Assembly (NCBI GenBank): GCA_029265905.1
Contig: JAJUGR010000008.1
Span: 12,194-76,193 of the forward strand
DNA: 64,000 bases
From: Sporomusaceae bacterium
Lineage (GTDB): Bacteria; Bacillota; Negativicutes; Acidaminococcales; JAJUGR01
Direction: 5' to 3'
Position numbers and translations under genes: made by a program. The notes below the pieces were generated by a model. That model was given only the letters and a program-made list of their open reading frames with translations. It was not told where the DNA came from and ran no database searches. Shown piece by piece: positions 5,291 to 23,805 of this stretch. The first letter of the stretch is position 1. Each line of letters opens with the position of its first letter.

Positions 5291-5456
5291 TGTGCGTCAG
5301 CGGCTGGCGCGCGTTTCCGATCCCGTCATGTTGTTTGCACAATATGCACAAAACTTGTAAGTTATAGCGCCAAATGATAACATGAAGGCGTGGGATTGTT
5401 TTCAATAATGCGAAAATTGTCGTTTTACAAGTTTGAAAAGGGGGGCTGGGAACAGC

Positions 5457-6668
5457 ATGAAGAAAATCGGCATGACCACACCTTTAGTAGAGCTCGACGG
5501 GGATGAAATGACAAGGATCATTTGGCAGCAGATAAAGGACCATTTGCTGGCGCCGTTTCTCGAACTGAAGACGGAATACTATGACCTTGGCTTGCAGCAT
5601 CGGGATGAAACAAACGACCAGGTTACGGTCGATGCGGCGGAAGCGATCAAAAAATATGGCGTAGGGGTCAAGTGCGCGACCATAACGGCTAACGCCGACC
5701 GCATGGTGGAATACAAGCTGAAGGAATTGTGGAAGAGTCCCAATGCCACGATCCGCGCCATTTTGGACGGCACTGTGTTTAGAGCGCCAATCATTGTCAA
5801 AGGGATTGAGCCGTATGTGCCGCGCTGGCGCAAGCCGATCACGGTTGCCCGGCATGCGTACGGCGATATCTACAAGAGCGCCGAGTTGCGCGTCGATGGC
5901 CCGGCGAAAGCGGAACTGGTCGTCACGTACAAGGACGGCAAGGTCGACAAAAAGACGGTTTATGATTTTGAGTGTCCCGGCATTGTCATGGGGATGCATA
6001 ACAAGGACAATTCGATTACGAGCTTCGCCCATGCCTGCTTTCAGTATGCCCTGAGTGTAAAACAGGATTTATGGTTTGCCACAAAAGACACCATTTCCAA
6101 AACGTATGACCAACGCTTCAAGGAAATTTTTGAAGAAATTTTCGCGCAAGAGTATGCGGCGAAGTTCCAGGAAGCCGGGATCGAATACATGTACACGCTG
6201 ATTGACGATGCGGTCGCGCGCGTGATCCGCTCGGACGGCGGCATGGTCTGGGCCTGCAAAAACTATGACGGCGATGTGATGAGCGACTTAGTCTCCACCG
6301 CTTTCGGCAGCCTGGCGATGATGACAAGCGTGCTGGTTTCGCCGGACGGCCACTATGAGTATGAAGCCGCCCACGGCACGGTGCAGCGGCACTACTACCA
6401 GCACCTGAAAGGGCAGGAGACCTCCACCAACTCGGTTGCCACTATTTTTGCCTGGTCGGGCGCCCTGCGCAAACGCGGCGAACTGGATGGCAACCAGGAC
6501 TTGATCGCCTTTGCCGACAACCTTGAGAAAGCGTCTTTGGCAACGATTGAAGAGGGCGAGATGACAAAAGACCTGTATGCGCTCTCTACTGTTTCGCCGA
6601 AGAAAACCTTGAATACGTTGGATTTTATTCTGGCGATCAAGACGCGGCTGGAAAAAATGTATCAATAA
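5457..6668 (+). CDS. icd: NADP-dependent isocitrate dehydrogenase (subfamily II, eukaryote-like homodimeric type)
   Basis: ~403 aa. The N-terminus [15 protein letters not shown] and the motifs NYDGDVMSD and HGTVQRHY are characteristic of type II IDH. Start set to ATG 5457 after AAAAGGGGGG. Confidence 0.93.
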
Positions 6669-6716: not shown

Positions 6717-6874
6717 TCTGCCGGTCGCCGCTGGTGCAAGGCTTTGGCATGTATACAAGATAAAAGGGATAAAATGTCGCCCTGGAAGCGAATGTGTGTT
6801 ACAATAACGAGTAAACCTGAACTTATTTTTTGGGTTTTAGTTATATTTGCAAAGTGAAAGTGGAGGGAAAAAGC

Positions 6875-7222
6875 GTGATTAAGCGTTCAGCTGATTTACA
6901 GCCGGTTACGCACCACAACCGATTCGGCGGCGAGGGCGAGGTTTCGCTCAAGGCGCTGTTGGTGGGGGATGAATTTGCTGGGAAAGGCCGCGTGTTTTCT
7001 CATATTGTCATTTTCCCCGAGTCGTCCATCGGCTTGCATCAGCATCAGGGCGATTTTGAGACCTTCTATATTTTAAAAGGGGAGGGGCAGGTCAATGACA
7101 ACGGGATCAAGACCGTCGTCAAGGCTGGTGATGTGATTTACACCCGGGACGGCGAGCACCACAGCCTGGCGAATACCGGCAGCGGCAATATGGAATTGAT
7201 TGCGCTCGTGCTCTACTCTTAA
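6875..7222 (+). CDS. cupin-domain protein
   Basis: The G-x5-H-x-H...G-x5-P-x-G...H pattern (IGLHQHQGDFETFYILKGEG...GDVIYTRDGEHHSLANTG) is a cupin metal site. GTG start at 6875 lies 6 nt after GGAGGG. Confidence 0.75.
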   Translation: MIKRSADLQPVTHHNRFGGEGEVSLKALLVGDEFAGKGRVFSHIVIFPESSIGLHQHQGDFETFYILKGEGQVNDNGIKTVVKAGDVIYTRDGEHHSLANTGSGNMELIALVLYS

Positions 7223-7254
7223 TTATTCGTGCTTACAGCAATTATTGGTCCAAA

Positions 7255-7303
7255 AAGCTTGGCAGAACGTGTTGCGACATGTTTGCCAAGCTTCTTTCTT
7301 TTG
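7255..7303 (+). terminator. terminator after the cupin gene
   Basis: Perfect 10-bp inverted repeat AAGCTTGGCA (7255-7264) / TGCCAAGCTT (7284-7293), followed by CTTTCTTTTG. Confidence 0.6.
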
Positions 7304-7388
7304 CAGGATCAGCGGCGATGTGGTATCGTATAGATGGACAAAACCACGAAATGTAGTAGCCTAATGTGACATCGAAGGAGAGTCGTGC

Positions 7389-8486
7389 GTGATGAAAATT
7401 CAAGAGATTCAAATCGGCAAGGTCAGCATTCCTTTGAAAAAGCCATTTAAAACTGCGTTGCGTCAGGTGAATTCGGCGGAAGACATTATTGTGAAGGTGA
7501 TAGCGGACAGCGGCGAAGTCGGGTTTGGCAACGCGCCCCCGACGGCCGTGATCACCGGCGACAGCCAGGAGGCGATTGTTGGCGCGATTCGCGGCACCAT
7601 TGGCCCGAAGCTGATCGGGATGGAAATCGACAACCTGGAAGGGATCATGAGCGCGATCGATACGTCGATGCTGCATAACAGTTCCGCCAAAGCGGCGCTG
7701 GACATTGCGGTTTACGACTTGTTCGGCAAGCTGCACGGCATTCCGGTGTATAAGCTGTTCGGCGGCTATTCACAGACGATAACGACGGATTTAACGATCA
7801 GTGTCAATTCGCCCGAGGAGATGGTACGCGATTCCCTCGAGGCGCTCGCCGAAGGCTACACGACCTTGAAAATCAAAGTCGGCACCGATGCCGAGCTGGA
7901 TATCCAGCGAGTGCGGGCGATCCGCGACGCGGTCGGCGATGACGTCGAGATTCGCCTTGACGCCAATCAAGGCTGGCTGCCCAAAGAGGCGGTGCGGACG
8001 ATCCGGAAGTTTGAAGACATGGGTCTGCGCATTGAATTGATCGAGCAGCCGGTCAAGGCGCACGACTTTGAAGGGCTCAAATTCGTTACGGACAACGTTG
8101 ACACGGACATTATGGCTGACGAAGCGGCGTTCGGCCCGTATGAAGTGTTCAAGCTGCTCTCGATGTCGGCGTGCGACTTGATCAACATAAAACTGATGAA
8201 AGCCGGCGGGCTGCACAATGCGCTCAAAATCGCCAGCCTGGCGGAAACAGTGGGCGTTCAGTGCATGATGGGCTGCATGCTGGAGAGCAAAATCGGCATC
8301 ACGGCCGCGGCCAGCCTTGCTGCCGGCAAAAAAATCGTGACCAAGACGGACCTGGATGCGGCGGTGTTGCTGGCGGAAGATCCAATTGTCGGCGGCGTTG
8401 CTTTCCACAAAAACCAGCTGCTTGTCCCGGACGCGCCTGGTTTTGGCATCACGGACGTGCTTGGCTGGCAGGAAATCCGCGCCTGA
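7389..8486 (+). CDS. dipeptide epimerase (L-Ala-D/L-Glu epimerase-like, enolase superfamily)
   Basis: 365 aa. The MR/MLE-type barrel shows LKIKVG, EIRLDANQGW, LIEQPV and DEAA motifs in the order expected for YkfB/YcjG-type epimerases. GAAGGAG RBS. Confidence 0.85.
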   Translation: MMKIQEIQIGKVSIPLKKPFKTALRQVNSAEDIIVKVIADSGEVGFGNAPPTAVITGDSQEAIVGAIRGTIGPKLIGMEIDNLEGIMSAIDTSMLHNSSAKAALDIAVYDLFGKLHGIPVYKLFGGYSQTITTDLTISVNSPEEMVRDSLEALAEGYTTLKIKVGTDAELDIQRVRAIRDAVGDDVEIRLDANQGWLPKEAVRTIRKFEDMGLRIELIEQPVKAHDFEGLKFVTDNVDTDIMADEAAFGPYEVFKLLSMSACDLINIKLMKAGGLHNALKIASLAETVGVQCMMGCMLESKIGITAAASLAAGKKIVTKTDLDAAVLLAEDPIVGGVAFHKNQLLVPDAPGFGITDVLGWQEIRA

Positions 8487-8516: not shown

Positions 8517-8554
8517 CAGGTGCGAGCGTCTACATGACGGCGCACCTGTTTTTA
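8517..8554 (+). terminator. terminator after the dipeptide epimerase gene
   Basis: CAGGTGCG (8517-8524) pairs with CGCACCTG (8541-8548), followed by TTTTTA. Confidence 0.6.
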
Positions 8555-8679: not shown

Positions 8680-10638
8680 ATGACAGGGAAAATATTCAAA
8701 ATCTTCATTGTATTGTTTTTTATGCTGCCCGCTTCCGTCTTCGCTGAAAATGGCGGGAGCGCCAAGCACCGCTTCGTCTTCGCGGGCGACGAAAAGTTTC
8801 CGCCCTACGAATATGTGGAGGAGGTTGGCGCGGAACGCATTTTCCGCGGCTTCAACGTCGACATCATGCGGGCGATCGCGCTGGAAATGAAGGTGGAGAT
8901 CGATTTGCTGCCCATGCCGTGGGCGGAAGCGCGCGACATGCTTGAGCAGGGGCGCGTGGACGCCATCCAAGGCATGAAGTATGATGAAGCGCGTGCGGCT
9001 AAGTACGATTATTCCGAACCTTATTTGACGACCGCGCACGCCCTGTTTGTGCGCCGCGATTCGCCGGCCAAGGACATGCAGGATTTGAAGGGCAAGCGGG
9101 TGGCGACGCAAAGCGGCGACATTGCCAGCCGCTATATTGCCGAGACCTACAACATTGAGCAAGTATCAGTGGGCAGCCAGGAAGAGGCCATTGCGCTCCT
9201 GGTGGCAGGAAAGGTCGAAGGGGCGGTTGTCAACAAGCTGGCCGGCCAGTATGTGCTGTATATAAAGGGCGAGCTGGAGCAGGCGAAATTGATCGGCGCG
9301 GATATCAATCCGGCCCAGTATGCTGTGGCGGTGCGCAAAGGCGATGTTGAAACGCTGGCGGTCGTCAACCGTGGGCTGCAGGAGATTAAGAAAAATGGAA
9401 CCTACCAAAAGATTTATGAAAAATGGTTCGGCAAGCCGATCGAGTATCCGCAGGTGTATTACATGGCCCGGCTCAAGCAGGCGCTTGTGGGCCTGGTCGG
9501 CCTGCTGGCGCTAGCGGTCGGACTCGGTTACATCAACTACCTCTTGCGCCGGGAGGTGCGCCGGCGCACCTGCAAAATTGAAATGATGAATCAGGAATTA
9601 ATGAAAGCCAATAAGTATGTTGAGAACGAAAACCGCTTAAAGACGCGGCTGTTAAACAGCGGCTACAGCGGCATCGTTGAGATTGATGCTTCCGGCCACG
9701 TCCTGTACATCAATAAATACGTCGAGGAGCAGCTGGGCGTAACCTTGCGGGTCGGCGAAGACTACCGCGCCAACCCGCTCTTGCAGCAGCTGCTGACGGC
9801 GGAAAATGGCGGGTTGAAGCTGGAGGATCGCGGCGAAACGCGCTTCCAGGAGATGGTGTTATCCTATTGCATTATCAACCTGGCGGATGACGATGTGGGG
9901 CGGGGCGTTGTCCTTCACATCCGCGATATTACGGAAGATCACAAACTGAGGCAGCAAATTGTGCAGATGGACCGCATGGAAGTGCTGGGCGCTTTGACGG
10001 CCGGCATTGCGCACGAAATCAGGACGCCGCTGACGTCAATCAAGAATTTTGCCACCTTGCTGCCGGCAAAATACGACAATCCGGTTTTCCGGGACAAAGC
10101 GCAATGCCATGTGCCTGAGGAAGTGAACCGGATTTGCCAGCTGGTGAACCAGCTGCTTGATTATTCCCAGCCCCGCAGCCCCGTGCCCCGCCTGATTTCG
10201 GGGGAAGAGATCTGGGCGACGCTCATGTTCACGGTTGAAAATTATGCCTATGACAAGCAGATTCAATTCGTCAAGACTGAGGACAAGCCTTGGGTCGTCT
10301 ACGCCGACAAGCAACAATTGCAGCAGGTTTTGCTGAACATTATGATTAACGCCATCGATGCGGTGGCTGATGTGGCGAAACCGGTGATTCAGTTCAGCAG
10401 CCACGTTTGCGAAGCGGATATCGTACTTGTCATTGCCGACAATGGCAGCGGCATGGAAGAGGAAACAAAGGCGCGCGCTTTTAATCCGTTCTTTACGACG
10501 AAAGGGAAAGGGACCGGTCTGGGATTGGCAGTCAGCCAGCAGCTGGTCCGCGAGAACCGCGGCGAAATCTGGCTGGAAAGTGAAAAAGGCAAAGGGACGA
10601 AGTTTATGATTCGCCTGCCGATGGAAGGTGCACGATGA
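8680..10638 (+). CDS. sensor histidine kinase with extracytoplasmic solute-binding (amino-acid-binding type) domain
   Basis: Signal/TM segment, then a ~230-aa region resembling family-3 solute-binding proteins (FAGDEKFPPYEY...DAIQGM...RVATQSGD). This is followed by a second TM, a PAS-like region, the HisKA H-box (AHEIRTPLTSI) and HATPase N/G boxes (NAIDA, DNGSGM, GTGLGLA). Start set to ATG 8680 after GGGAGGGA. Confidence 0.88.
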   Translation: MTGKIFKIFIVLFFMLPASVFAENGGSAKHRFVFAGDEKFPPYEYVEEVGAERIFRGFNVDIMRAIALEMKVEIDLLPMPWAEARDMLEQGRVDAIQGMKYDEARAAKYDYSEPYLTTAHALFVRRDSPAKDMQDLKGKRVATQSGDIASRYIAETYNIEQVSVGSQEEAIALLVAGKVEGAVVNKLAGQYVLYIKGELEQAKLIGADINPAQYAVAVRKGDVETLAVVNRGLQEIKKNGTYQKIYEKWFGKPIEYPQVYYMARLKQALVGLVGLLALAVGLGYINYLLRREVRRRTCKIEMMNQELMKANKYVENENRLKTRLLNSGYSGIVEIDASGHVLYINKYVEEQLGVTLRVGEDYRANPLLQQLLTAENGGLKLEDRGETRFQEMVLSYCIINLADDDVGRGVVLHIRDITEDHKLRQQIVQMDRMEVLGALTAGIAHEIRTPLTSIKNFATLLPAKYDNPVFRDKAQCHVPEEVNRICQLVNQLLDYSQPRSPVPRLISGEEIWATLMFTVENYAYDKQIQFVKTEDKPWVVYADKQQLQQVLLNIMINAIDAVADVAKPVIQFSSHVCEADIVLVIADNGSGMEEETKARAFNPFFTTKGKGTGLGLAVSQQLVRENRGEIWLESEKGKGTKFMIRLPMEGAR

Positions 10639-11996
10639 ATAAGATTTTGATTGCCGATGACGATCAAGCGATTAATGTGTCGCTGGCGTTCGCCTTGGAA
10701 GACGAATATGACGTCAGAACGGCGCTTGATGAACAGGCGGTGAAGGCTGCGCTGGAAAAAGAAACGATTGATGTTGTGCTGCTCGACCAGCGCTTCGGCG
10801 AATGCGACGGCATTGAGCTGCTGAAATGGATAAAACAGACTTACCCTGACACTTGCGTCATCATGATGACGGCTTACGGCAGCATTCACACGTCTGTGGA
10901 AGCGATGGCCAGAGGGGCGTACTACTACCTCACCAAGCCGGTCGCCGTGGACGACCTGCTGCTTTTATTGAAGCGGGCGACTGAGCTGCTCAGTTTGCAG
11001 CAGCGGGTGGAAAGCTTGCAAGAACAGCTGGCCGGGCAAACAGGCGGCATTGTCGGCAAGAGCCAGGCCATAAAAGAAGTACTCGGCTTCATTGATAAAG
11101 TCAAAGACGCCGATGCCAATGTCTTTGTTGCGGGAGAAAGCGGCACCGGCAAGGAACTCATTGCCAGGGCGATCCACTACACCGGCAAGCGCCAGGCGCA
11201 GCCTTTTATCGTGCTCAATTGCGCGGCCGTACCGGAGCAGTTGATGGAAAGCGAGCTGTTCGGCTATGTCCGGGGGGCCTTCACAGGCGCTGGGCAGAAG
11301 CGGCGCGGCGCTTTTGAGCTGGCCGACAAGGGCACGCTGTTTTTGGATGAAATCTGCGAAATGGCCTACCCGCTTCAAGCCAAGCTGCTGCGCGTCGTGC
11401 AGGAAAAGCAGCTTACGCCGCTAGGGGCGGAAGCGCCGCGCAACATTGATGTGCGGATTATTTGCGCGACTAATCGCGAGATTGAAACCGAGGTCAGGGA
11501 GGGGCGCTTCCGGGCCGATTTGTACTACCGGCTCAATGTGCTGCGCATTCAGGCGCCGCCGTTGCGGCAAAGACGCGAAGACATCCCGATGCTTGCGCAA
11601 TACTTTTTGGATAAATACAACCGCCTGTGCGGGAAAAAGGTTCCCGGCTTTACTGAAGCGGCGCTGAAGGCGCTTCTGGAGTACGGTTTTCCCGGCAACG
11701 TGCGGGAGTTGGAAAATGTCGTAGAACGCGGCGTTATCTTGTCTGCCGGCGAACATATTGATTTCAATAAAATCGTCGGTGTGGAAGCTTGTAAAGAAGC
11801 CGCTGATTGCTTGTTTGGCGTCGAAGTTGGCGAACCGCTCAGCAAGGTTGAGAAGGCGTTTATTTTGCTGACTCTGCAGAAAATGGAAGGGAACAAGCGG
11901 AAAACCGCCGAGGTATTGGGGCTTAGTGAACGGGCTTTGCGCTATAAGCTCCAGGAGTATAAGGCGGAGTCGGAAAAAAGTGCCGGCAGGCAGTAA
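10635..11996 (+). CDS. sigma-54-dependent response regulator (NtrC/AtoC-type enhancer-binding protein)
   Basis: REC domain (ILIADDD...DVVLLDQ), AAA+ domain with Walker A GESGTGKE and the sigma-54 contact loop GAFTGA (YVRGAFTGA), and a C-terminal Fis-type HTH. The ATGA overlap with the kinase stop suggests translational coupling. Confidence 0.93.
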   Translation: MNKILIADDDQAINVSLAFALEDEYDVRTALDEQAVKAALEKETIDVVLLDQRFGECDGIELLKWIKQTYPDTCVIMMTAYGSIHTSVEAMARGAYYYLTKPVAVDDLLLLLKRATELLSLQQRVESLQEQLAGQTGGIVGKSQAIKEVLGFIDKVKDADANVFVAGESGTGKELIARAIHYTGKRQAQPFIVLNCAAVPEQLMESELFGYVRGAFTGAGQKRRGAFELADKGTLFLDEICEMAYPLQAKLLRVVQEKQLTPLGAEAPRNIDVRIICATNREIETEVREGRFRADLYYRLNVLRIQAPPLRQRREDIPMLAQYFLDKYNRLCGKKVPGFTEAALKALLEYGFPGNVRELENVVERGVILSAGEHIDFNKIVGVEACKEAADCLFGVEVGEPLSKVEKAFILLTLQKMEGNKRKTAEVLGLSERALRYKLQEYKAESEKSAGRQ

Positions 11997-12049
11997 GAAT
12001 TGCCGCCGGGATTACGCTCGCATGGGGAAAACAAATGAAGGAAGGGCGG

Positions 12050-12062
12050 CGGCAGATTGCCG
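12050..12062. promoter_or_regulatory. candidate upstream activator site (palindrome CGGCA-N3-TGCCG)
   Basis: CGGCAGATTGCCG lies ~55 nt upstream of the -24 element at 12115. A related half-site AATTGCCG is at 11998-12005. Confidence 0.3.
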
Positions 12063-12114
12063 AAGACCCTTGTGTTAAGCGTGTTGACGCTCTCTTGTCA
12101 GGCGAAGAGGGTGT

Positions 12115-12130
12115 TGGCACGCTTTTTGCA
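12115..12130 (+). promoter_or_regulatory. sigma-54 (-24/-12) promoter P1
   Basis: Exact consensus TGGCAC-gcttt-TTGCA in intergenic DNA, ~77 nt upstream of the MFS start codon and directly downstream of a sigma-54 EBP gene. Confidence 0.8.
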
Positions 12131-12207
12131 TTAATGAACTTGGCAAGCGAGACCGCACTGCTGCCTGTTGAATTTTTTGGCAAGCTTTGAGACAAGGGGA
12201 TGGGGAA

Positions 12208-13545
12208 ATGGCGACGATGAACGGCGGGAAGCGATGGCTCATTGCGGCAATGGGGACGCTGCTGCAGATGGCGCTCGGCACCGTGTATGCCTGGAGCTTC
12301 TTCCAGCAACCGGTCATGGCACTGGGCAACTGGTCAAATGCGCAGGTGTCTTGGGCGTTTAGCCTGGCAATCTTTTTTCTCGGCATTGCGGCCGCTTGGG
12401 GCGGGATCAAGCTTCCCGCCATAGGGCCGCGCAAACTGGCGATGTCAGGCGGCTTTCTGTTTGCCTGCGGCTATTTTATCACGGCGTATGCGCTGACGGC
12501 CAAAAGCCTGCCGTTGCTTTATGCCGGCTACGGCGTCGTCGGCGGCATCGGGCTGGGGCTGGGCTATGTGACGCCGGTATCGACGGTTGCCAAATGGTTT
12601 CCGGATAAAAAAGGCTTGGTTACCGGCCTGGTCGTCATGGGGTTTGGCTTTGGCGCTCTGGTCATGGCCAAGGTGCTTGCCCCCTTCTTGCTGTCGCTAT
12701 GCGGCGGCAACCTCGGTTTGGTCTTTGCGTCGGTTGGTGCTGTCATGCTGCTTGTTACCTTGCCGTCCGGCTTTTGCTTGGTCAATCCGCCGTCAGGCTT
12801 TGCGCCGGTTGGCGACCGGGCGCAGCGGGCGGCGAAACCGCAAGCTCTGCCGGCGCCGGCGACCGCCGCGCAATGCCTTGCTTCCGGCCGCTTTGCCATG
12901 ATGTGGAGCGTTTTCTTTTTCAACATTACGGCCGGAATCATGTTCATAGGCTTTCAATCGCCGCTGCTGCAGGATTTGATGAAAAAATCGCTTGACCCGT
13001 TGTCTTTGCGTGACCCGCAGGTGGTCGCCACGCTCGCTGGGTACGGGGCGACGCTGATCGCCGTCAGTTCAATCTTCAACGGCGTTGGACGGTTTTTTTG
13101 GGGCGGGCTGTCTGATCGGATTGGCCGGGTCCAGGCCTTTAGGCTGATTTTAGGCTCGCAGCTGGCTGTTTTTGCCGCCCTGCTGTTTGTGGACAGCCCT
13201 ATCGTCTTCGGGGGGCTGGTTTGCTACATCCTGCTTTGCTACGGCGGTGGTTTTGGCGCCATGCCGTCATTTATCCTGGACACGTTCGGCGAAAAGCTGA
13301 TGCCGGTTGCCTACGGGGCCGTGCTGACGGCTTGGGGCTGCGGCGGCATCGTCGGCCCGCAGCTGGTGGCCTACCTGAAAGACCATTATCCGCAAAACGC
13401 CGCCCACTATGCTTTCCTGTCGGCGGCGGGTTTTTTGCTGATCGGTTTGCTCATTTCCTTTGTGTTGGACAATAAGCAGTTCATTTCGGGCGGCAAATCC
13501 GCAACTGCTTCGGCGCGCTGGCAAACAGAGACGCTGAAGCGGTGA
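12208..13545 (+). CDS. MFS transporter, oxalate/formate antiporter (OFA)-like
   Basis: ~445 aa with about 12 predicted TM segments. The N-terminus [22 protein letters not shown] matches the OFA-family signature region as I remember it. Start set to ATG 12208 after AAGGGGA. Confidence 0.8.
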
Positions 13546-13582
13546 CTGTGGAATCAATAATATTGGAAAGGGAGTATTGCAG

Positions 13583-15250
13583 ATGAAAAGCGATGTTGAA
13601 ATTGCCCAAGCGGCGGAGATGAAGCCCGTTGCACAGGTTGCCGCAGAACTTGGCTTGCTGGAGGACGATATTGAGTTGTTCGGCAAATACAAAGCCAAGG
13701 TTTCGTTAGCTGCCTGGGAGCGGCTGAAAGACCGCGCGGACGGCAAGGTTGTCCTGGTTAGCGCTATTAATCCGACGCCGGCGGGCGAGGGGAAGACGAC
13801 CAATACGGTGGGGCTTGGCGATGCGTTGCGGCGATTAGGAAAGAAAGTTGTCATCGCGCTGCGCGAACCTTCGCTCGGACCGTGTTTTGGCGTGAAGGGG
13901 GGCGCCGCGGGCGGGGGCTATGCCCAGGTAGTGCCGATGGAAGACATCAACCTGCATTTCACCGGCGACATTCATGCCGTGACGACCGCCAACAACTTGT
14001 TGGCCGCGGTCATCGACAACCATATCCACCATGGAAATTTGTTGGGGATTGATCCGCGGCGGATAACCTGGCGCCGCGTTATGGATTTGAATGAACGGGC
14101 GCTGCGGCATATTGTCCTCGGCCTCGGTGGAAAGGCGAACGGCATTCCCCGGGAGGGTGGCTTTGACATTTCCGTCGCCTCTGAGCTGATGGCTATTCTC
14201 TGCCTGGCGAGCGACCTGGATGACATGAAGGCGCGGATTAGCCGCATCATCGTTGCCTACACGTACGGCAACGCGCCAGTTACGGTGGCCGACCTGAATG
14301 TGGCTGGGGCGATTACGCTCTTGTTCAAGGATGCGATCAAGCCCAATTTAGTTCAGACGCTGGAAAATACGCCAGCCTTTGTTCATGGCGGACCATTTGC
14401 CAACATCGCGCACGGCTGCAACAGCGTGATGGCCACGAAGTTTGCCCTGAAATTAGCGGATGTTGTTGTGACGGAAGCGGGTTTTGGCGCTGACCTGGGG
14501 GCGGAGAAATTTTTTGATATCAAGTGCCGGTTTTCCGGCCTGAAGCCGGAGGCTGTTGTGCTGGTTGCGACGATTCGCGCGCTCAAATCACACGGCGGCG
14601 TTGAAAAAGGCAATTTAGGGAAAGAAAATATGCCGGCATTGGAAAAAGGCATGGCCAACCTCGTCAAGCATATTGAGAATATCGGGAAATTTGGCCTGCC
14701 GGCCGTAGTCGCGATTAATGCCTTCCCTACCGATACAGAACAGGAATTGGCTTGGGTGGAAGCGGCCTGCGGGAAGCTGGGCGTCAGGGTGGCTTTGTCC
14801 AAGGTGTGGGAAAAAGGCGGCGAGGGCGGAAAAGCGTTGGCGCAGGCTGTGCTGGCCGCGCTCGATGAGCCGAAAGAATTTCGCTATTTGTATGACGAAA
14901 CGCTGCCGATCAAAGAAAAAATAGCCGCGATTGCCCAAGAAATATATGGCGCCGATGGCGTTCGCTATACCCCGGCAGCCGAAAAGACAATCAAAGAGCT
15001 GACTGCCCTGGGGTACGACAAGACGCCGATTTGCATGGCCAAAACCCAGTATTCGTTCAGCGATGATCCGGCTAAGATCGGCCGGCCGCAACATTTCGAC
15101 ATTACTGTACGGGAGTTGCGCGTTTCGGCCGGCGCCGGCTTTTTGGTCGCGGTAACCGGCGACATCATGACGATGCCAGGCCTGCCGAAAAAGCCGGCCG
15201 CCGAGGTCATGGACATCGACAATAACGGGAAAATATCCGGCCTCTTTTGA
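13583..15250 (+). CDS. fhs: formate-tetrahydrofolate ligase
   Basis: 555 aa. SDVEIAQ...[10 protein letters not shown] (P-loop)...[13 protein letters not shown] are hallmark Fhs motifs. ATG at 13583 follows AAAGGGAG. Confidence 0.95.
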
Positions 15251-15274
15251 AGCAAGCGATGCTTGGCTGAGTGG

Positions 15275-15289
15275 CGGCAAATTTTGCCG
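15275..15289. promoter_or_regulatory. candidate upstream activator site (palindrome CGGCA-N5-TGCCG)
   Basis: CGGCAAATTTTGCCG lies ~130 nt upstream of the -24 element at 15417. A further half-site ATTTGCCG ends at 15310. Confidence 0.3.
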
Positions 15290-15416
15290 TTGTGGGGGAA
15301 AAATTTGCCGCATGTATTTAACGGCGTGCGGAAAAATCTGACTAATTTACAATCCTGCGCGCAGAAGGCCCTTGCTGGCAAGGGGCTTGGCGAAGATTGT
15401 GCCTGGGTCAAGGGGT

Positions 15417-15432
15417 TGGCACGTTTTTTGCA
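15417..15432 (+). promoter_or_regulatory. sigma-54 (-24/-12) promoter P2
   Basis: Exact consensus TGGCAC-gtttt-TTGCA, ~48 nt upstream of the formimidoyltransferase start. Confidence 0.8.
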
Positions 15433-15480
15433 TAAGGGTTAGGCGAGATAATCATCAGCAATAGTGAAGGGGTGGGCAGT

Positions 15481-16377
15481 GTGGCAAAATTAGTGGAGTG
15501 TGTACCGAATTTCAGCGAGGGGCGCCGGCCGGAGGTCATCGAGGCGATTACGGCGGAAGTGAAGGCAGTACCGGGCGTAAAACTGTTGGATGTAAACCCG
15601 GACCCCAGCCATAACCGCGTGGTGGTAACGTTCGTTGGCGAGCCGGAAGCGGTCAAGCTAGCCGCCTTCCGGGCCTGCAGCAAGGCGACCGAGTTAATTG
15701 ATATGGAAAAACATGAAGGCGAGCACCCGCGCATTGGTGCGACCGACGTCATTCCGTTTATTCCTGTCAAGGATGTGACAATGGAGGAATGCGTGGCTTT
15801 GGCGCAGTCGCTGGGTGAGGAGATCGCCGACAAGCTGGGGATTCCGATTTATTTGTACGAGGATGCCGCCAAAATTCCGACGCGCCGGGCATTGCCGGAT
15901 ATCCGCAAAGGACAGTATGAGGGCCTGAAGCAGGAAATCAGCAAACCGGAACGGCATCCGGATTTCGGGGCGCCCAAAATGCATCCCACTGCTGGCGCCA
16001 CGGTTGTAGGGGCCCGCCAGTTCCTGGTTGCCTTCAACATCAATCTCAGCACGAGCGATGTGCAGATCGCCAAAAAAATCGCCAGCACGATTCGGGAAGC
16101 CAAAGGCGGCTACAAATATTGCCGGGCGATGGGCGTTATGATCGAAGAACGGAACCTGGCGCAAGTTACGATCAATATGATCAATTACACCGGTACGCCG
16201 TTGCACAGGGTCTTTGAAACGGTCAAATCGGAAGCGGCCCGCTATGGGGTCAACGTGGTTGGCAGTGAAATTATCGGTTTGACGCCGCTGCAAGCGCTGC
16301 TGGATGCGGCTGACTTCTACTTGCGGCTGGAAGGGTTTGACCGCAAGCAGGTTCTGGAAGAGAACATCTACGAGTAA
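15481..16377 (+). CDS. ftcD: glutamate formimidoyltransferase
   Basis: The N-terminus AKLVECVPNFSEGRRPEVI is the signature start of the FTCD formiminotransferase domain. ~298 aa covers both FT subdomains. GTG start at 15481 lies 8 nt after GAAGGGG (15472 is an alternative). Confidence 0.9.
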   Translation: MAKLVECVPNFSEGRRPEVIEAITAEVKAVPGVKLLDVNPDPSHNRVVVTFVGEPEAVKLAAFRACSKATELIDMEKHEGEHPRIGATDVIPFIPVKDVTMEECVALAQSLGEEIADKLGIPIYLYEDAAKIPTRRALPDIRKGQYEGLKQEISKPERHPDFGAPKMHPTAGATVVGARQFLVAFNINLSTSDVQIAKKIASTIREAKGGYKYCRAMGVMIEERNLAQVTINMINYTGTPLHRVFETVKSEAARYGVNVVGSEIIGLTPLQALLDAADFYLRLEGFDRKQVLEENIYE

Positions 16378-16390
16378 GGGGAGGCAGACT

Positions 16391-17020
16391 ATGCTGGTCG
16401 AGATGACAATCAAGGAATTTCTGTCGGCGTTAAAATCGGATGCGGCCGCTCCGGGCGGCGGCAGCGCTGCAGCCTTAGCCGGAGCGGTGGGGGCTGCGCT
16501 GGCGCTGATGGTCGGAAATCTGACCCTAGGCAATTCGAAGTACCCGGAAGCGCAAGATGAGGTTGCGGCCTTGCAGCCGCAGCTAGAAGCGTGTCTGGCA
16601 AAGCTGGAACGCTATATCGACGAAGACACCGAGGCGTTCAACCGGGTAATGGACGCTTACCGCCTGCCGAAGGCGACGGAGGAAGAAAAGCAAGCCCGCA
16701 GTCAAGCCATTCAAGAAGCCTTGCAGCAAGCGGCCGTACTGCCAATGACCGTGGCGGAGACGAGTCAGGAGGTGTTGGTAATGGCGCGGCGGATGCTGGC
16801 GATCGGCAACAGCAATGCCGCCAGCGATGCGGCTGTCGCCGGGCGGATGGCGCATACGGCCATGTGGGCGGCAATTTATAATGTGCGGATCAACTTAGGC
16901 TCAATCAAGGATCAGGCGTTTGTAGCCGCGATGAAAAAGCGGATTGACGATGTCAGTGCAAAAGCGGCGGATGTTTTGGCAGCTTTGCTGACTGAAGCGG
17001 ACGGCAAAATCGGCAGTTGA
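16391..17020 (+). CDS. cyclodeaminase/cyclohydrolase-family protein (formimidoyl-THF cyclodeaminase or FchA-type methenyl-THF cyclohydrolase)
   Basis: 209-aa all-helical protein. FLSALKSDAAAPGGGSAAALAGAVGAALALMV is the conserved N-terminal motif of the FTCD C-terminal domain family. AGGGGAGG RBS. Start at 16391, not the ORF-track 16304. Confidence 0.85.
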   Translation: MLVEMTIKEFLSALKSDAAAPGGGSAAALAGAVGAALALMVGNLTLGNSKYPEAQDEVAALQPQLEACLAKLERYIDEDTEAFNRVMDAYRLPKATEEEKQARSQAIQEALQQAAVLPMTVAETSQEVLVMARRMLAIGNSNAASDAAVAGRMAHTAMWAAIYNVRINLGSIKDQAFVAAMKKRIDDVSAKAADVLAALLTEADGKIGS

Positions 17021-17085
17021 GGCGTCCGCCGGCAGGGACAAAGCGCCGCAACAAGGCCGTCTAGGGCGGAAAGCGAGGGATAGGG

Positions 17086-17688
17086 ATGAAGATCACGGTG
17101 ATTAATGAAGCGGCCGCCAGCACGTCAGTATGGTCGGGCGGAACCAGCAGGCAATACTACATTTTCCCTCCATCAGCTTCGTATGGAGAACGGAATTTTG
17201 CTTTTCGGATGAGCCTGGCAACGTCCTCCTCTGAGGCTGAGGCGCCATACAGCAACCTCGAAAACATCACGCGCCACTTGGTTATGCTCGACGGCGCGGC
17301 GCACGTTGTTCACAAGGGCCATTATGAGCTGGATATGCATCCCTATGCGGAAATCGATGTCTTTGATGGCGGGTGGGAGTCATCAGGCACGGGCAAAGTC
17401 ACGGATTTTAACCTGATGGTTGCTAAAGGGGTTCACGGCCGCATGTCGGTCATTGCCGAAGACAAGACGGTTGACTTGGGCGGCGGCTGTGAGCAGTGCT
17501 CGAAGCGCTATAATAGAACGGCATTCTTCTGCGGTTCTGGCAGCGCTTCCCTCGTTTTTTCAACCGGAGAAACCTTTCGCCTGGACAAGGGGGCCTTGCT
17601 GCTTGTGGAGGAGATGCCAGACGCTTCGCGCGTTGCGGTTGGCCTTTCCGAGGCAAAACTGGTGCGGATGGATGTTTGCTGCCATTAA
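17086..17688 (+). CDS. hutD: HutD/Ves-family protein
   Basis: 200 aa. WSGGTSRQYYIFP near the N-terminus and the overall beta-rich cupin-like pattern resemble HutD. The context next to formiminoglutamate genes supports the call. Confidence 0.6.
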   Translation: MKITVINEAAASTSVWSGGTSRQYYIFPPSASYGERNFAFRMSLATSSSEAEAPYSNLENITRHLVMLDGAAHVVHKGHYELDMHPYAEIDVFDGGWESSGTGKVTDFNLMVAKGVHGRMSVIAEDKTVDLGGGCEQCSKRYNRTAFFCGSGSASLVFSTGETFRLDKGALLLVEEMPDASRVAVGLSEAKLVRMDVCCH

Positions 17689-17807
17689 GCCCGGTGCGAA
17701 CAAAAGGAGGGGGAGCGAGCAGGGGCGTGGACGGATAGCCTGCACAACTGACGACGGACAACGATTCGGTACGCTACAGCCCAATCTAGAAAAGGACGGT
17801 GAGAATA

Positions 17808-19043
17808 ATGAAGTTCGAAATGGCTGGTTCGGTGTTGACCCTCATCTTCGATAACATTGGCACGATGACCCTGGCATCAGTACTCTTGCTCATTGGTTTC
17901 TGGGTCAAAAAGCAGGTATACGTGCTTGAGAAATTCTGCATACCGGCTCCTGTTGTTGGCGGCTTTATCTTCGTATTCATTAATTTCTTGTTCCATTTGA
18001 GCGGAACGGTGGCCTTTAAGTTTGACTCAACGTTTATGGGCGCCTTTATGCTGGCCTTTTTCACATCCGTCGGGTTGGGCACGAGCCTTAAAATTTTGCT
18101 GACCGGCGGCAAACTGCTGGTGGTTTATTGGCTGGTCAACGTCGGCGTAACGATTCTGCAGACCGGCATCGGCATCGGCCTGAGCCCGATCGCCGGCATG
18201 CATCCGGTATACGGCATCGTATCAGGGCCGGTGGCTTTGGTCGGCGGTCATGGCGGTGCGGCTGCCTACGGGCAAACGCTTGAGGCAATGGGCTTTCCCG
18301 GCGCCAGCCTAGTCGGGTTGTCAGCGGCGACGTTCGGCCTTGTTGCCGCCAGCCTGATTGGCGGGCCGCTCGGCAGACGCCTGGTTGTCGCTTATGACTT
18401 GAAACCGAGTGCTGACGAAGCTTTTGCTATCGATACCAGCGGTTATGACGAAAAGACGGCGCCAAAAGTTGACATGAATTACGCCAATACCATGAAAAAC
18501 ATCACTGCCCTGCTTGTTTCCATGACGCTGGGGTCGATCATCGTCGGCATCATCGGCAAGCAGATCGGCATGTCCATCCCGACTTATGTCGGCGCGATGT
18601 TCTTCGCCGTGCTGGTAAGAAACCTCAACGAGAAGTTCCATTTCTACGAATTCAGCATGGAGTTCAACGACAAATTAGGCGACGTTTGCTTGGGAATCTA
18701 CCTCTCCATGGCGCTCGTCACGCTCAAACTGTGGGAATTGGCTGGTTTGGCATTACCGCTTTTGATCGTGCTGGTTGTGCAGACCGTGGTGTTATTAGCC
18801 CTCACGTACTTCTTGATCTTCCGGATTCTTGGCAAGAATTACGACGCTGCGGTCATGTGCTCAGGCCTGATCGGCCATGATATCGGTTCGACGCCTACAG
18901 CGGTGGCAAACATGACGACGATCATGGACAAATACGGCCCGTCGCGCAAAGCGCTGATCATCGTTCCGATCGTGGGCGCCTTCCTCATCGACGTTTTCTA
19001 CCAGCCGTTTGTCGTGTACTGCATCAACCTTTACGGGAAATAA
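17808..19043 (+). CDS. gltS: sodium/glutamate symporter
   Basis: ~411-aa polytopic protein. Length, N-terminal LTLIFDNIGTMTLASVLLLIGFWV and the repeated GxxxG-rich helices match GltS (ESS family) as I remember it. ATG at 17808 (GTG 17799 is an alternative). Confidence 0.85.
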   Translation: MKFEMAGSVLTLIFDNIGTMTLASVLLLIGFWVKKQVYVLEKFCIPAPVVGGFIFVFINFLFHLSGTVAFKFDSTFMGAFMLAFFTSVGLGTSLKILLTGGKLLVVYWLVNVGVTILQTGIGIGLSPIAGMHPVYGIVSGPVALVGGHGGAAAYGQTLEAMGFPGASLVGLSAATFGLVAASLIGGPLGRRLVVAYDLKPSADEAFAIDTSGYDEKTAPKVDMNYANTMKNITALLVSMTLGSIIVGIIGKQIGMSIPTYVGAMFFAVLVRNLNEKFHFYEFSMEFNDKLGDVCLGIYLSMALVTLKLWELAGLALPLLIVLVVQTVVLLALTYFLIFRILGKNYDAAVMCSGLIGHDIGSTPTAVANMTTIMDKYGPSRKALIIVPIVGAFLIDVFYQPFVVYCINLYGK

Positions 19044-19095
19044 CCGGCAAATAAAAAGAAGTCCGCGAATGTGCGGACTTCTTTTTATTTGCCGG
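19044..19095. terminator. bidirectional terminator with 23-bp perfect stem
   Basis: CCGGCAAATAAAAAGAAGTCCGC (19044-19066) pairs with GCGGACTTCTTTTTATTTGCCGG (19073-19095). A/T runs lie inside the stem on both strands. It separates gltS from the convergent regulator gene. Confidence 0.8.
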
Positions 19096-19102
19096 CTGGT
19101 GA

Positions 19103-20416
19103 TCACTTATCAATTTTTTCAAATTCGATGATGCGGCTGGGGCGGCCGGTTGCGCCCACCATGCGGCTGCCGATCACGCGGCAAAAGCCGCTGGTGTCCA
19201 GACGTTCCAAAATGCGGTTCATGCGGCGCTGGCTGAGGCCGAGTAGGGCGGACAGTTCCTTGGCGGTAAAAGTGGTTTTGCCCATCTCTTCAATGAGTTC
19301 GACAAGTTGGTAGATGATGTTGACGCTCAGGCCGGACTTGACGGCCAATTCCTCCACTCCCGATTCCAGTGTTTCCACCCGCTTGCTTTGCGTACCCAGA
19401 TAGGTGATGGGATAGATGAACAGGTCTTCGTTCGCGACAAAGGCGCGGTCTCCGCCGGATTTTATCGCCTGAAACAACGCTTTTCGGGCGCCGGCATGGG
19501 CCTGGCGGATCGTGTTTCCGTAGCCGATTCCCAGGCTTACGGTGTTGAAGGTGTCGTTGCGAATATTGCTCAACAGGTCGATGTTTTTCAAATCATTTGT
19601 TTTGGCGGAAAAGACGTCTTCGGCGACAAACAGAACATAGCTTTCGTCCTTGGTTTCCAAAATGGCGGCGTTGATCCGCTCGGCGAATTCGTGGATATAG
19701 GTAAGCGTTTTAGCCTTTTCCATGATGTTTTTATATTCGTTTTCGCGGACAACGGAGTATTCTTTCGGTTCGTCAATATGAACTTGCAGGACGACCAGGT
19801 TGTTGCGCTGCGTGAACTTGAAAATGTAGTTCAGCTCGAGCTTGTGCAGGGTTTCCGCGATAATTTCGTACGTAGAGGCGATGTAGACGCTAGGCACGTT
19901 TCGTTTTCTTAATTCGACCCAGACGGAATGCAGGGCCGTCAGGCAACAGGAGACCTTCTGCTTGAGATAATACTGCTCGTGCTGGCGGACGATGCGCTCG
20001 AACTCCTGGCCCATCACGTCCCGCTGGACGCAGAACACGTTCGTTTGCTCGCTGGGAATGCCGATTTCGTCATACACGGTGTACATATCTTTTTCCGTGT
20101 AGCTGTCGATGCTGATGTTGGTAATCGAGCAGTGGTTGTGTTCGGCGATCAGGCAGGCGTACAGCAGCGCATGGATGCTGCGGGGCAAATAGTCGCTGAT
20201 GATGTCCGGATCAATGAATTTTTTGGCGGCAAAGTAAGGGGAAGTGCCAGTCAGCAAGATTGCGTCGCAGTCGTTGCTGTTGGTTTTTACCATTTGCGGC
20301 GCTTCCGTGTAGTGGCTGTAGATGCAGTTGATCGGGGTGATGCTGGGGAACTGGCTTTTGATAACGCGATTCACTTTGGCGACGATCGCCTCGTTGCCGA
20401 TGACCTTCAGGCGCAT
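19103..20416 (-). CDS. transcriptional regulator of uncertain family (GGDEF-like/PucR-CdaR-like middle domain, C-terminal HTH)
   Basis: 437 aa. The C-terminus FTAKELSALLGLSQRRMNRILERLDTSGF is a clear HTH. The central SLGIGYGNTIRQAHAGARKAL resembles the degenerate GGDEF-like domain of PucR/CdaR regulators. ATG at 20416 follows GGAGGAAA. Confidence 0.65.
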   Translation of the reverse strand: MRLKVIGNEAIVAKVNRVIKSQFPSITPINCIYSHYTEAPQMVKTNSNDCDAILLTGTSPYFAAKKFIDPDIISDYLPRSIHALLYACLIAEHNHCSITNISIDSYTEKDMYTVYDEIGIPSEQTNVFCVQRDVMGQEFERIVRQHEQYYLKQKVSCCLTALHSVWVELRKRNVPSVYIASTYEIIAETLHKLELNYIFKFTQRNNLVVLQVHIDEPKEYSVVRENEYKNIMEKAKTLTYIHEFAERINAAILETKDESYVLFVAEDVFSAKTNDLKNIDLLSNIRNDTFNTVSLGIGYGNTIRQAHAGARKALFQAIKSGGDRAFVANEDLFIYPITYLGTQSKRVETLESGVEELAVKSGLSVNIIYQLVELIEEMGKTTFTAKELSALLGLSQRRMNRILERLDTSGFCRVIGSRMVGATGRPSRIIEFEKIDK

Positions 20417-20607
20417 AGCGGTTTCCTCCACTTTTGGACAACTTTTGGCTCCTTTTTAGCTCCATTTATACGAGATATAATGACGCTGTGAAGAGACATA
20501 CTGTTCACAACTCTATGCCTAGTATTGTATCAGAAGGGGGATTGTGACGCAAAGCAACTTGTTCTTTTCACGGCAAACCGGATCATTTACAGAGGAGGGT
20601 GGATTGC

Positions 20608-21306
20608 ATGGATTTAAAGACAGTTATCAACAGCCCCGGCATGTGGCTGGCCTGCAGCCTAATGGTAATGGTGGTGATGGGGCAGTCGATCGTATTTTTG
20701 CGCGCGGCGTTTAAAGCAGCGCCCGGCATCGGCGTCAGCCGCGAACAGTGCTACACGGCCATGCGGTCTGCTGCTTACACGGCGATCGGACCGGCCTTGG
20801 GTCCGGTCATAATTCTTCTGGTGCTGATCGACACGCTGGGGGCGCCGATTGCCTGGATGCGGCTGTTGGACATCGGCGCTGCGCATACGGAACTGGTCGC
20901 CTCGACGCTGGGCGCGCAGGTGGCCGGCGTGGATTTGCGCTCGGCGGCGTTTGACTTAAAGGCGTTCAGCTATGCGCTGTGGGCCCAGGCGTTGAACAAC
21001 GTCGGCTGGATGGCGGTCACGCTCTTGGTTACGCCGAAAATGGGCGGTGCGGTATCGGCGCTCACTAAGAAAACGAATCCGCGCATGGTGGCCCTCTTGA
21101 TCGCCGGCGCAAGCTTAGGCCTGTTTTCCTTCTTGCTGGGCAACCAGCTGGTGAGCGGCAAAGCCGGCAATATTACGGCCGCCGTCGCTTCCGCCGTGGC
21201 TTTCTTGGCCATGGGGCTGGCCAGCAAAAACTACCCGCGGCTCCGCGAGTTTTCTCTGGGCTTGGCTATGGTGGTCGGTATTTTCGCCGCCCAGGCGATG
21301 CTGTAA
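20608..21306 (+). CDS. polytopic membrane protein, family not recognised (putative transporter subunit A)
   Basis: 232 aa with 5-6 hydrophobic helices. AGAGGAGGG RBS 8 nt upstream of ATG 20608. First gene of the operon divergent from the regulator. Confidence 0.65.
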   Translation: MDLKTVINSPGMWLACSLMVMVVMGQSIVFLRAAFKAAPGIGVSREQCYTAMRSAAYTAIGPALGPVIILLVLIDTLGAPIAWMRLLDIGAAHTELVASTLGAQVAGVDLRSAAFDLKAFSYALWAQALNNVGWMAVTLLVTPKMGGAVSALTKKTNPRMVALLIAGASLGLFSFLLGNQLVSGKAGNITAAVASAVAFLAMGLASKNYPRLREFSLGLAMVVGIFAAQAML

Positions 21307-21331
21307 GAACAGATTGTGAGGAGTGATCAGT

Positions 21332-23754: not shown

Positions 23755-23805
23755 GCATGCTTCGCCCTGGCGCTGCTTGCAGGGCCTGAAGCGTGCGGAC
23801 AAAGG

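Follow-up and report, generated by a model that had tools for sequence, protein, structure and literature searches.

A probable two-component, sigma-54-dependent switch for a formiminoglutamate branch in a Sporomusaceae genome

What switches on the folate-dependent breakdown of formiminoglutamate (FIGLU) in anaerobic Negativicutes, and which compound outside the cell would set it in motion? The question is raised by a 64-kb stretch of contig JAJUGR010000008.1 from a Sporomusaceae bacterium (hereafter the window, to which all window-wide counts, domain scans and motif searches refer), in which genes for a sensor histidine kinase and a sigma-54 enhancer-binding protein (EBP) stand directly ahead of two operons with exact -24/-12 promoters. 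The reading that we favor, at a probability of roughly three in four, is that this locus constitutes a dedicated two-component, sigma-54-dependent catabolic switch. Domains and families were assigned by Pfam gathering scores and curated NCBIfam equivalog cutoffs, and a sigma-54 promoter was defined by the dinucleotides GG and GC, spaced 10 bp from each other inside TGGCAC-N5-TTGCW, lying between genes, upstream of a gene and on its strand. The regulatory pair is encoded as follows.

8680 to 10638, plus strand: sensor histidine kinase of 652 amino acids, in the order first transmembrane segment (TM1), SBP_bac_3 domain, second transmembrane segment (TM2), PAS-like linker, HisKA, HATPase_c
10635 to 11996, plus strand: NtrC-family sigma-54 enhancer-binding response regulator, with a 4-nt overlap with the kinase gene

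The kinase carries the extracytoplasmic, amino-acid-type family-3 domain that the initial annotation had proposed and expected a profile search to find. Specifically, residues 34-252 match SBP_bac_3 (PF00497) with an E-value of 4.9e-34 and 117 bits against a cutoff of 26.4, and the domain faces outward, since hydrophobic segments at about residues 3-23 and 265-288 bracket it in the hydropathy profile. HisKA (residues 437-499, with His445) and HATPase_c (543-649) complete the protein, whose start at 8680 agrees with the identical protein deposited at NCBI (P0001). The nearest solved structure to the sensor is the kinase sensor domain in PDB entry 3h7m (E 6.5e-39). In substrate-binding proteins of the GlnH/HisJ/LAO type, an Arg clamps the alpha-carboxylate, a Ser/Thr sits in a G-x-T/S motif and an Asp binds the alpha-ammonium group of the ligand. 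Aligned to AncQR and GlnPQ, the window sensor retains the Arg (R105), has Lys100 at the Thr position and has Asn185 at the Asp position. R105 and N185 are invariant across 103 members of the sensor family, so that N185 was discarded as a candidate marker of the FtcD-linked clade, in which alone R56, K100 and D102 are fixed.

The second gene encodes a genuine sigma-54 EBP, again as first proposed. Pfam finds REC (PF00072, residues 4-110), Sigma54_activat (PF00158, residues 139-306, E 2.9e-69, 232 bits), AAA_lid_14 (PF25601) and HTH_8 (PF02954, residues 402-442), and the phospho-acceptor Asp51, a Walker A motif GESGTGKE at 167 and GAFTGA at 214 give the protein every hallmark of the response-regulator class, namely the REC Asp, the AAA+ Walker A and GAFTGA motifs and a helix-turn-helix (HTH) of the Fis type at the C terminus. 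Domain scans of the open reading frames (ORFs) revealed no second EBP in the window. Both partners stay below the cutoffs of all the named equivalogs with which they were compared: AtoC (444 vs 714), NtrC (402 vs 559), ZraR (376 vs 760), GlrR (330 vs 763) and PrdR (343 vs 795) for the EBP, and AtoS (229 vs 646, aligned over residues 301-649) and ZraS (155 vs 479) for the kinase. AtoS/AtoC, NtrC and ZraR share the architecture of the regulator and the cytoplasmic part of the kinase, with scores far under their cutoffs, and their sensor domains are unrelated to the one found here.

Directly downstream, the promoters and the genes behind them are arranged as follows.

12115 to 12130, plus strand: sigma-54 promoter P1, TGGCACGCTTTTTGCA, exact consensus, 77 nt 5' of the start codon of the MFS gene
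12208 to 13545, plus strand: SLC16/SfMCT-like MFS monocarboxylate transporter, probable formate carrier, behind P1
13583 to 15250, plus strand: formate--tetrahydrofolate ligase Fhs (PF01268, 915 bits; NF010030, 938 vs a cutoff of 652)
15276 to 15309: predicted upstream activator sites of P2, GGCAAATTTTGCC at 15276-15288 (-141) and GGAAAAATTTGCC at 15297-15309 (-120), 21 bp apart
15417 to 15432, plus strand: sigma-54 promoter P2, TGGCACGTTTTTTGCA, exact consensus, about 40-48 nt 5' of the ftcD start
15472 to 16377, plus strand: glutamate formimidoyltransferase FtcD (TIGR02024, 443.5 vs 221; FTCD_N PF07837 and FTCD PF02971)
16388 to 17020, plus strand: FTCD_C-family protein (PF04961, 219 bits)
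17086 to 17688, plus strand: HutD-family protein (PF05962, 68 bits vs a cutoff of 25)
17799 to 19043, plus strand: GltS-family Na+/glutamate-type symporter (TIGR00210, 315.3 vs 310.75, a marginal pass; PF03616, 348 bits)
19044 to 19095: intrinsic terminator with a 23-bp perfect stem and a 6-nt loop, separating gltS from the convergent gene 19103-20431

P1 and P2 are the only exact copies of TGGCAC-N5-TTGCA in the window, as had been noticed by eye, against 0.01 expected, and none of 100 shuffled sequences reached two. Both lie between genes and have the orientation of the genes downstream. Sites with one mismatch are at chance level (6 vs 3.4 expected), and a third sigma-54 site at 63356-63371 on the minus strand was set aside as a chance match, lying antisense within polA. 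Upstream of P2, the two palindromes have the geometry expected of an NtrC-type activator and are predicted to be its binding sites. The hairpin that closes the second operon folds with a free energy of -40.7 kcal/mol (z -9.7; folding and terminator scan); it ends the block as originally described and, being symmetric, reads as a terminator on both strands, so that it could serve the convergent gene too. No Rfam element, whether a tetrahydrofolate (THF), ZTP or other riboswitch, was found in the P1 and P2 leaders even at E-values up to 1.

Family models bear out the identities first assigned to FtcD, a cyclodeaminase-type FTCD_C protein, HutD and Fhs. The fhs start at 13583 agrees with the deposited protein, ftcD likely starts at GTG 15481, and the FTCD_C reading frame, which can be extended to 16304 inside ftcD, probably begins at 16388, the earlier start being too far upstream. 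The FTCD_C protein is most likely a formimidoyl-THF cyclodeaminase, judging by its exclusion from the FchA cyclohydrolase model (NF045657, cutoff 275; 188 here and 186-200 for the orthologues) and by its position after ftcD, a position that is kept in all loci of the GltS type. GltS passes the curated threshold for Na+/glutamate symporters, as do its counterparts in orthologous loci (339-353 on TIGR00210), which is consistent with the proposed role in handling glutamate.

The transporter behind P1 required a revision. It had been described as an OFA-like exporter of formate and was expected to match the OFA family; it misses the cutoffs for OFA (TIGR00890, 167 vs 375) and OxlT (TIGR04259, 141 vs 335) and marginally passes the SfMCT 'L-lactate MFS' model (NF049980, 321.2 vs 320). 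Transporters of Sporomusa, Anaeroselena and Methylomusa are about 70% identical to it; the Sporomusa homologues carry the NCBI name 'L-lactate MFS transporter', and some database sources still label homologues 'OFA family'. The link to formate fares better, since in Sporomusa termitida the MFS gene is directly followed by fhs (L169, 10001-13155) and in a contig of a JGI metagenome it is directly preceded by folD (L170, 9124-11353). On the basis of this adjacency, a formate carrier is plausible, and it may work in either direction, since related bacteria, being acetogens, import formate.

The case for the switch rests largely on related loci, for each of which a neighborhood of about 20 kb was examined. 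A profile search of genome contigs with the full kinase alignment was dominated by the generic IAHEIRTPL motif and yielded L003, L004, L005 and L017 as informative loci, while a metagenome profile search with a sensor-only alignment added few close relatives and uncovered L094. The kinase relatives come from Sporolituus, metagenome-assembled genomes (MAGs) of Veillonellaceae and some Clostridia; they are 37-47% identical to the window kinase and have consistent contexts, with FtcD-linked kinase/EBP pairs at 37–44%. Six loci join the kinase-EBP pair to GltS, FtcD and FTCD_C: L002 from a metagenome, L083 from GCA_029975165, L084 from Sporolituus thermophilus, L085 and L003 from Veillonellaceae MAGs and L086 from a JGI metagenome. 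Their FtcD proteins are 76-81% identical to that of the window. The operon of L003 ends with an added Fhs gene, and in L002 a HutD gene adjoins the kinase gene. In L004 (3736-7857, minus strand), FtcD is driven by a sigma-54 promoter that has GGCA-N5-TGCC palindromes, and the operon goes on with genes for a TAXI-family binding protein and a TRAP permease in fused form but contains no cyclodeaminase gene, so that here FtcD is paired with a carrier that is not homologous to GltS. In L017, a promoter of this kind drives GltS alone. Altogether, an orthologous pair with a -24/-12 promoter driving FtcD and an uptake system occurs in seven other loci, five of which also keep the tandem palindrome upstream as at P2, and -24/-12 elements equivalent to P1 and P2 were found in 10 related loci.

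Across the orthologous loci, these upstream sites are tandem 13-bp palindromes of the form [T/G]GCA-N5-TGC[A/C] with an A/T-rich center, about 75-130 bp upstream of the promoters (75-140 bp when P2 is included). Positions are given relative to the -24 element.

L086: TGCAAAAATTGCA and TGCAATTTTTGCA, at -108 and -90
L085 and L003: the pattern of L086, at -108 and -90
L017 (a Clostridiaceae MAG): a pattern like that of L086, at about -113 and -97
L002: TGCAAAAAATGCC and TGCAATTTTTGCC, at -122 and -78
L004: GGCACAAAATGCC and GGCACAATATGCC, at -97 and -74
L094: a GGTA...TACC variant

The branching of the family suggests how such a regulon may have been assembled. In a neighbor-joining tree of sensor domains, the window kinase branches off deep within a clade whose members, where examined, lie next to FtcD, and its closest relatives, P0002 and P0003 (46-47% identity), form a small subclade nested in this clade. 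The loci of these two kinases (L087, 4859-8982, and L088, 5749-12531) have a sigma-54 promoter with a TAXI-TRAP system, and L087 also has an agmatinase-type ureohydrolase. The latter was considered as a formimidoylglutamase HutG and ruled out, as it passes the agmatinase model (215 vs 174) and fails that of hutG (132 vs 229). In distant members (L005, L089, L093, L097 and L138), the sigma-54 promoter drives TRAP systems of the TAXI or DctP type, from which the ancestral logic of the family reads as sensing an outside solute and inducing its carrier. In the Negativicutes clade, by comparison of gene neighborhoods, the enzymes of FIGLU catabolism appear to have joined the carrier in the regulon.

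The branch is physically apart from hutHUI, as was first noted. Domain scans found no hutH, hutU, hutI or folD in the window and no HutC (GntR-family) or HutP gene among the ORFs scanned, and the neighborhoods of the loci examined contain neither hutH nor hutI. In L094 (6560-9760), hutU, encoding a urocanase of 696 amino acids, lies 19 nt upstream of ftcD and directly before the kinase-EBP pair. There, the pair controls a TAXI-TRAP system, and hutU-ftcD forms a terminated two-gene unit whose upstream region has AGTCACTAA/TTAGTGAC repeats and no -24/-12 element; this unit is probably under a different regulator.

Several related loci also encode a small stand-alone PAS protein of 111-118 amino acids (L001, 9627-9962; L083, 9639-9974; L085, 13606-13959; L086, 13632-13988; L003, about 13500-13860), which tblastn did not find in the window. 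Its gene sits between the sigma-54 promoter and gltS in L085, L086 and probably L003, where the ORF is unconfirmed. In L001 and L083 it heads a promoter-PAS-kinase-EBP unit with a -24/-12 element in front, and there the whole unit would be autoregulated. The protein may be an accessory signaling partner of this two-component family.

The available data are compatible with a model in which an extracytoplasmic solute binds the Venus-flytrap SBP_bac_3 domain and alters the activity of the kinase, which would autophosphorylate on His445 and pass the phosphate to Asp51 of the EBP. The EBP would assemble on the GGCA-N5-TGCC-type 13-bp palindromes that lie some 120-140 bp upstream of P2, as well as, probably, on the degenerate copies at P1, and would open the closed complexes of sigma-54 RNA polymerase at both promoters by means of ATP and its GAFTGA loop. 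From P2, FtcD would transfer the formimino group of FIGLU to THF, thereby freeing glutamate, and the cyclodeaminase would convert 5-formimino-THF into 5,10-methenyl-THF and ammonia; HutD and the GltS-type Na+ symporter would be made alongside. FolD, encoded elsewhere in the genome, would supply 10-formyl-THF as the link between the products of P2 and P1. From P1, Fhs would interconvert 10-formyl-THF and formate with ATP, a reaction that could run the other way in an acetogen, and the monocarboxylate transporter would most likely carry the formate. The reactions of the enzymes are established chemistry, and this order of signaling is established behavior of the families involved. The identities of the genes, the promoter matches and the conservation of gene order, promoter and upstream palindromes are observed; phosphotransfer within the pair, binding of the EBP to the palindromes, control of P1 and the flow of substrate are what we infer for this locus. 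None of the structural genes in the two operons is out of place in FIGLU catabolism, each being either required for it or compatible with it.

How far does the reach of the pair extend? It had been proposed as the dedicated activator of both promoters. For P2 this is very probably so, given the seven loci and their palindromes; for P1 it is reasonably probable, with degenerate sites and the Sporomusa termitida cassette tempering the claim. The following elements upstream of P1 are suggestive as targets of the EBP.

11972 to 12004: tentative P1 activator sites, GGAAAAAAGTGCC at 11972-11984 (-143) and AGTAAGAATTGCC at 11992-12004 (2 mismatches), which overlap the stop codon of the EBP gene
12048 to 12062: extended half-site match GGCGGCAGATTGCCG, compared with the P2 half-site GGCGGCAAAT, with an N3 spacer instead of N5

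The tentative sites resemble those of P2 in position and in their 20-bp spacing. P1 might be a recent duplicate of P2; only a core of about 22 nt and a few short patches align between them. Two further repeats were observed near the promoters. An imperfect inverted repeat at 12077-12124 (20 nt, 75% complementary) overlaps the -24 element of P1 with its 3' arm, with TTTTGCATT after it; the repeat could act as terminator of the EBP transcript, as an occluding structure or as an operator. Between the upstream sites of P2 and its -24 element lies an 11-bp inverted repeat, AAGGCCCTTGC/GCAAGGGGCTT at 15365-15388, with a related GAAGACCCTTG upstream of P1 (12062-12074), which may be a site for a second factor.

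Other explanations have to be weighed against this switch or parts of it. The MFS-Fhs pair might be a separate sigma-54 unit under another EBP, for instance one responsive to formate or C1 status, whose place next to the kinase-EBP pair is coincidental. Such independence would suit the failure to find a canonical N5 palindrome upstream of P1, the near-background frequency of the P1 candidate sites (palindrome matches with at most one mismatch occur at 2.5 per kb across the window), the MFS-Fhs cassette of Sporomusa termitida, which stands alone without a sigma-54 promoter, and the many sigma-54 response regulators of Sporomusaceae, 12 of which were counted in one genome (PMC6315149). We nevertheless consider it rather improbable: the cores of P1 and P2 are near-identical over about 22 nt, differing in one spacer base, P1 begins only 119 nt past the EBP stop codon, the 215 bp upstream of P1 contain two matches to GGCGGCAAAT with at most one mismatch (11998 inverted, 12048 direct) vs about 0.09 expected, and Fhs is found within the orthologous operon of L003. 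Since the cassette of S. termitida lacks a sigma-54 promoter, P1 looks like a lineage-specific recruitment of MFS-Fhs. Far less probable still is that FtcD and FTCD_C serve folate housekeeping, such as the disposal of 5-formyl-THF, rather than the catabolism of histidine or FIGLU. Moonlighting glutamate formiminotransferases that replace 5-formyl-THF cycloligase have reportedly been described (Jeanguenin et al., in 2010), and neither hutH nor hutI is nearby, yet housekeeping genes are not usually found under a sigma-54 promoter and an extracytoplasmic sensor, together with an uptake carrier in the same transcript, HutD is part of the operon, and hutU adjoins ftcD in L094. Beyond the gap in P1 sites and the S. 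termitida cassette, the switch itself has other observations to contend with: no rpoN is among the ORFs of the window, in domain scans that covered these 64 kb, while GAFTGA-bearing EBPs conserved in related genomes and the Sporomusaceae response regulators hint indirectly at its presence elsewhere; the Asp that would bind an alpha-ammonium group is replaced by Asn185 throughout the sensor family; the HTH sequence shows no clear co-variation with the palindrome's outer base, the recognition helices of L017 (TGCA type) and the window (GGCA type) being near-identical; and the closest kinases control agmatinase and TAXI-TRAP genes, so that target sets can switch within the clade.

Within the two-component switch, the main choice concerns the inducer, which is most likely a compound built on a glutamate skeleton and imported by the co-regulated carrier. 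FIGLU is our tentative candidate, at somewhat less than even odds, with L-glutamate less likely; histidine, urocanate or another compound is likewise doubtful, histidine being disfavored as the transported solute because the co-regulated carriers are of the glutamate type. If FIGLU is scavenged, the sensor would bind extracellular FIGLU released by other histidine degraders, GltS or TAXI-TRAP would import it, and FtcD, cyclodeaminase, FolD and Fhs would turn it into glutamate, ammonia, formate and ATP, with the MFS protein exporting the formate. This extension of the switch is possible and gives every regulated gene a role, so that the coherence of the regulon favors it. It further accords with the pairing of an uptake system and FtcD across two non-homologous carriers (GltS in six loci, TAXI-TRAP in L004), with the lack of hutH and hutI nearby, with the residues fixed in the FtcD-linked clade only, and with the Asp-to-Asn exchange, which fits an N-substituted amino acid. 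It is strained, in turn, by the curated glutamate-symporter threshold that all GltS proteins pass, by L017, in which a GltS 78% identical to that of the window is the sole visible target, by N185 being invariant also in distant TRAP-controlling members without FtcD, by hutU beside ftcD in L094, which suggests that FIGLU is made inside the cell, and by a literature search (mainly open-access papers and preprints) that turned up neither FIGLU uptake nor FIGLU in the role of an environmental substrate. Alternatively, the kinase may sense external L-glutamate, as AauS does, with uptake through GltS or TAXI-TRAP as its main task and FtcD, cyclodeaminase and Fhs riding along as FIGLU from internal histidine feeds the same glutamate pool. 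Although we regard this as unlikely, the target sets across the wider family all include a carrier of a kind known to handle glutamate (GltS equivalogs, TAXI-TRAP); glutamate is also favored by L017 with its lone GltS, by the scores of the GltS proteins on the curated model and by the precedent of AauSR with RpoN, including its suggested recapture of glutamate lost in histidine catabolism (PMC7962211); and the additional basic residues R56 and K100 would suit an acidic ligand. Against it, five of the six structural genes (those for FtcD, cyclodeaminase, HutD, Fhs and the MFS protein) would have no reason to be induced by their own product, and the canonical alpha-ammonium Asp is missing.

How does the proposed switch compare with known systems? 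In Pseudomonas, AauS/AauR and RpoN control the utilization of acidic amino acids, the EBP binding paired inverted repeats TTCGG-N4-CCGAA (PMC7962211). The likeness is considerable, comprising a membrane kinase for an external amino acid, an NtrC-type EBP, paired repeats, a -24/-12 promoter and a glutamate-type uptake target; unlike the present kinase, however, AauS is of the DctB type without a fused SBP_bac_3 domain, its target is the ABC transporter AatJQMP, the DNA motif is unrelated and the system is proteobacterial (PMC7962211). The circuit also works like DctBD. For histidine, NtrC and CbrB of P. fluorescens bind and activate PhutU in a locus that includes hutD, with CbrA proposed as the histidine sensor, so that there, too, two-component sigma-54 EBPs directly activate genes of histidine utilization (PMC8034625). 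These are global regulators of nitrogen and carbon metabolism acting over a local HutC, in a pathway that uses HutF and HutG in place of the folate-dependent FtcD branch (PMC8034625), whereas the system in the window looks local and dedicated. In Clostridium, comparative genomics predicts HiaR as a one-component sigma-54 EBP for hiaL-hyp-hutH, which likewise places a step of histidine catabolism in Firmicutes under sigma-54; it differs in covering the upper pathway (histidine transport and catabolism), with no FtcD target mentioned, and EBPs of the response-regulator type make up only about 10% of those in clostridia (PMC6615313). The view, given in the initial annotation, that hut control means HutP or HutC leaves out NtrC and CbrB on PhutU (PMC8034625) and the predicted control of hutH by HiaR (PMC6615313).

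The fusion of a periplasmic-binding-protein fold to a histidine kinase as its sensor has parallels in HK29S of Geobacter (3h7m) and in BvgS. For HK29S, we know of no established physiological ligand or regulon. BvgS is a hybrid kinase with multiple Venus-flytrap domains that controls virulence, and not through a sigma-54 EBP. With respect to metabolism, the enzymes are those of the clostridial branch of histidine and purine fermentation (FtcD, cyclodeaminase, FolD and Fhs), with the same expected chemistry and ATP formed at Fhs; unlike that branch, the genes here form two sigma-54 operons together with carriers, and FolD and hutHUI are not among its genes. By the affinities of its transporter and kinase the host is most likely a Sporomusaceae-like Negativicute; if it is an acetogen, as is possible, Fhs could run either way.

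As such, the logic of the circuit (external solute, kinase, NtrC-type EBP, and a sigma-54 operon with carrier and enzymes) is conventional, and sigma-54 control of hut genes is known. A literature search, again mainly of open-access papers and preprints, returned no work linking sigma-54 to FtcD, cyclodeaminase or Fhs and no paper on TAXI-TRAP systems with sigma-54 two-component regulators that describes the present system. How the folate-dependent FIGLU branch of histidine catabolism is regulated in anaerobes is apparently undescribed. The kinase/EBP pair represents a conserved set of orthologues within a well-known kind of regulator, and no earlier description of its regulon was found.

Elsewhere in the window, a cupin gene and an enolase-superfamily (MR_MLE) gene lie directly 5' of the kinase (6830-8486), and a terminator-like hairpin at 8526-8543 ends this block; the best models of the MR_MLE gene, L-Ala-D/L-Glu epimerase and N-acetyl-D-Glu racemase, are both under cutoff. 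A lone palindrome like the upstream activator sites, TGCACAATATGCA at 5336-5348, is intergenic and 5' of an Iso_dh-family gene (5433-6668), with no -24/-12 element nearby, and is probably due to chance. Beyond the second operon, the convergent gene 19103-20431 shows no match beyond a GdpP-like GGDEF hit under threshold, a DUF5058 protein is encoded at 20599-21306, and no Pfam match was found for the ORFs 21323-22033 (236 amino acids), 22237-23913 (minus strand, 558 amino acids) and 24786-26252 (minus strand, 488 amino acids). A T-box leader (41663-41860; 96.8 bits, gathering score 93) lies 5' of a serA-like gene for D-3-phosphoglycerate dehydrogenase (41934-43523).

For the biology of these bacteria, the locus and its orthologues supply a concrete and testable regulator, in which kinase and EBP come with defined promoters and a candidate site on the DNA. 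Among the hosts is Sporolituus thermophilus, a named species whose genome has been assembled. A handle on the role of HutD is offered as well, and a candidate formate carrier is genetically tied to Fhs and FolD in Sporomusaceae. A more far-reaching idea, which we hold to be unlikely, is that FIGLU is an extracellular, cross-fed energy substrate, for which this kinase clade would be the receptor and GltS or TAXI-TRAP the importer. If this were true, Negativicutes in which hutHUI is elsewhere or absent would gain glutamate, ammonia and, through Fhs, one ATP per FIGLU, and formate would leave through the MFS transporter. Whether FIGLU or glutamate is the solute that is sensed and imported thereby bears on amino-acid cross-feeding in anaerobic communities.

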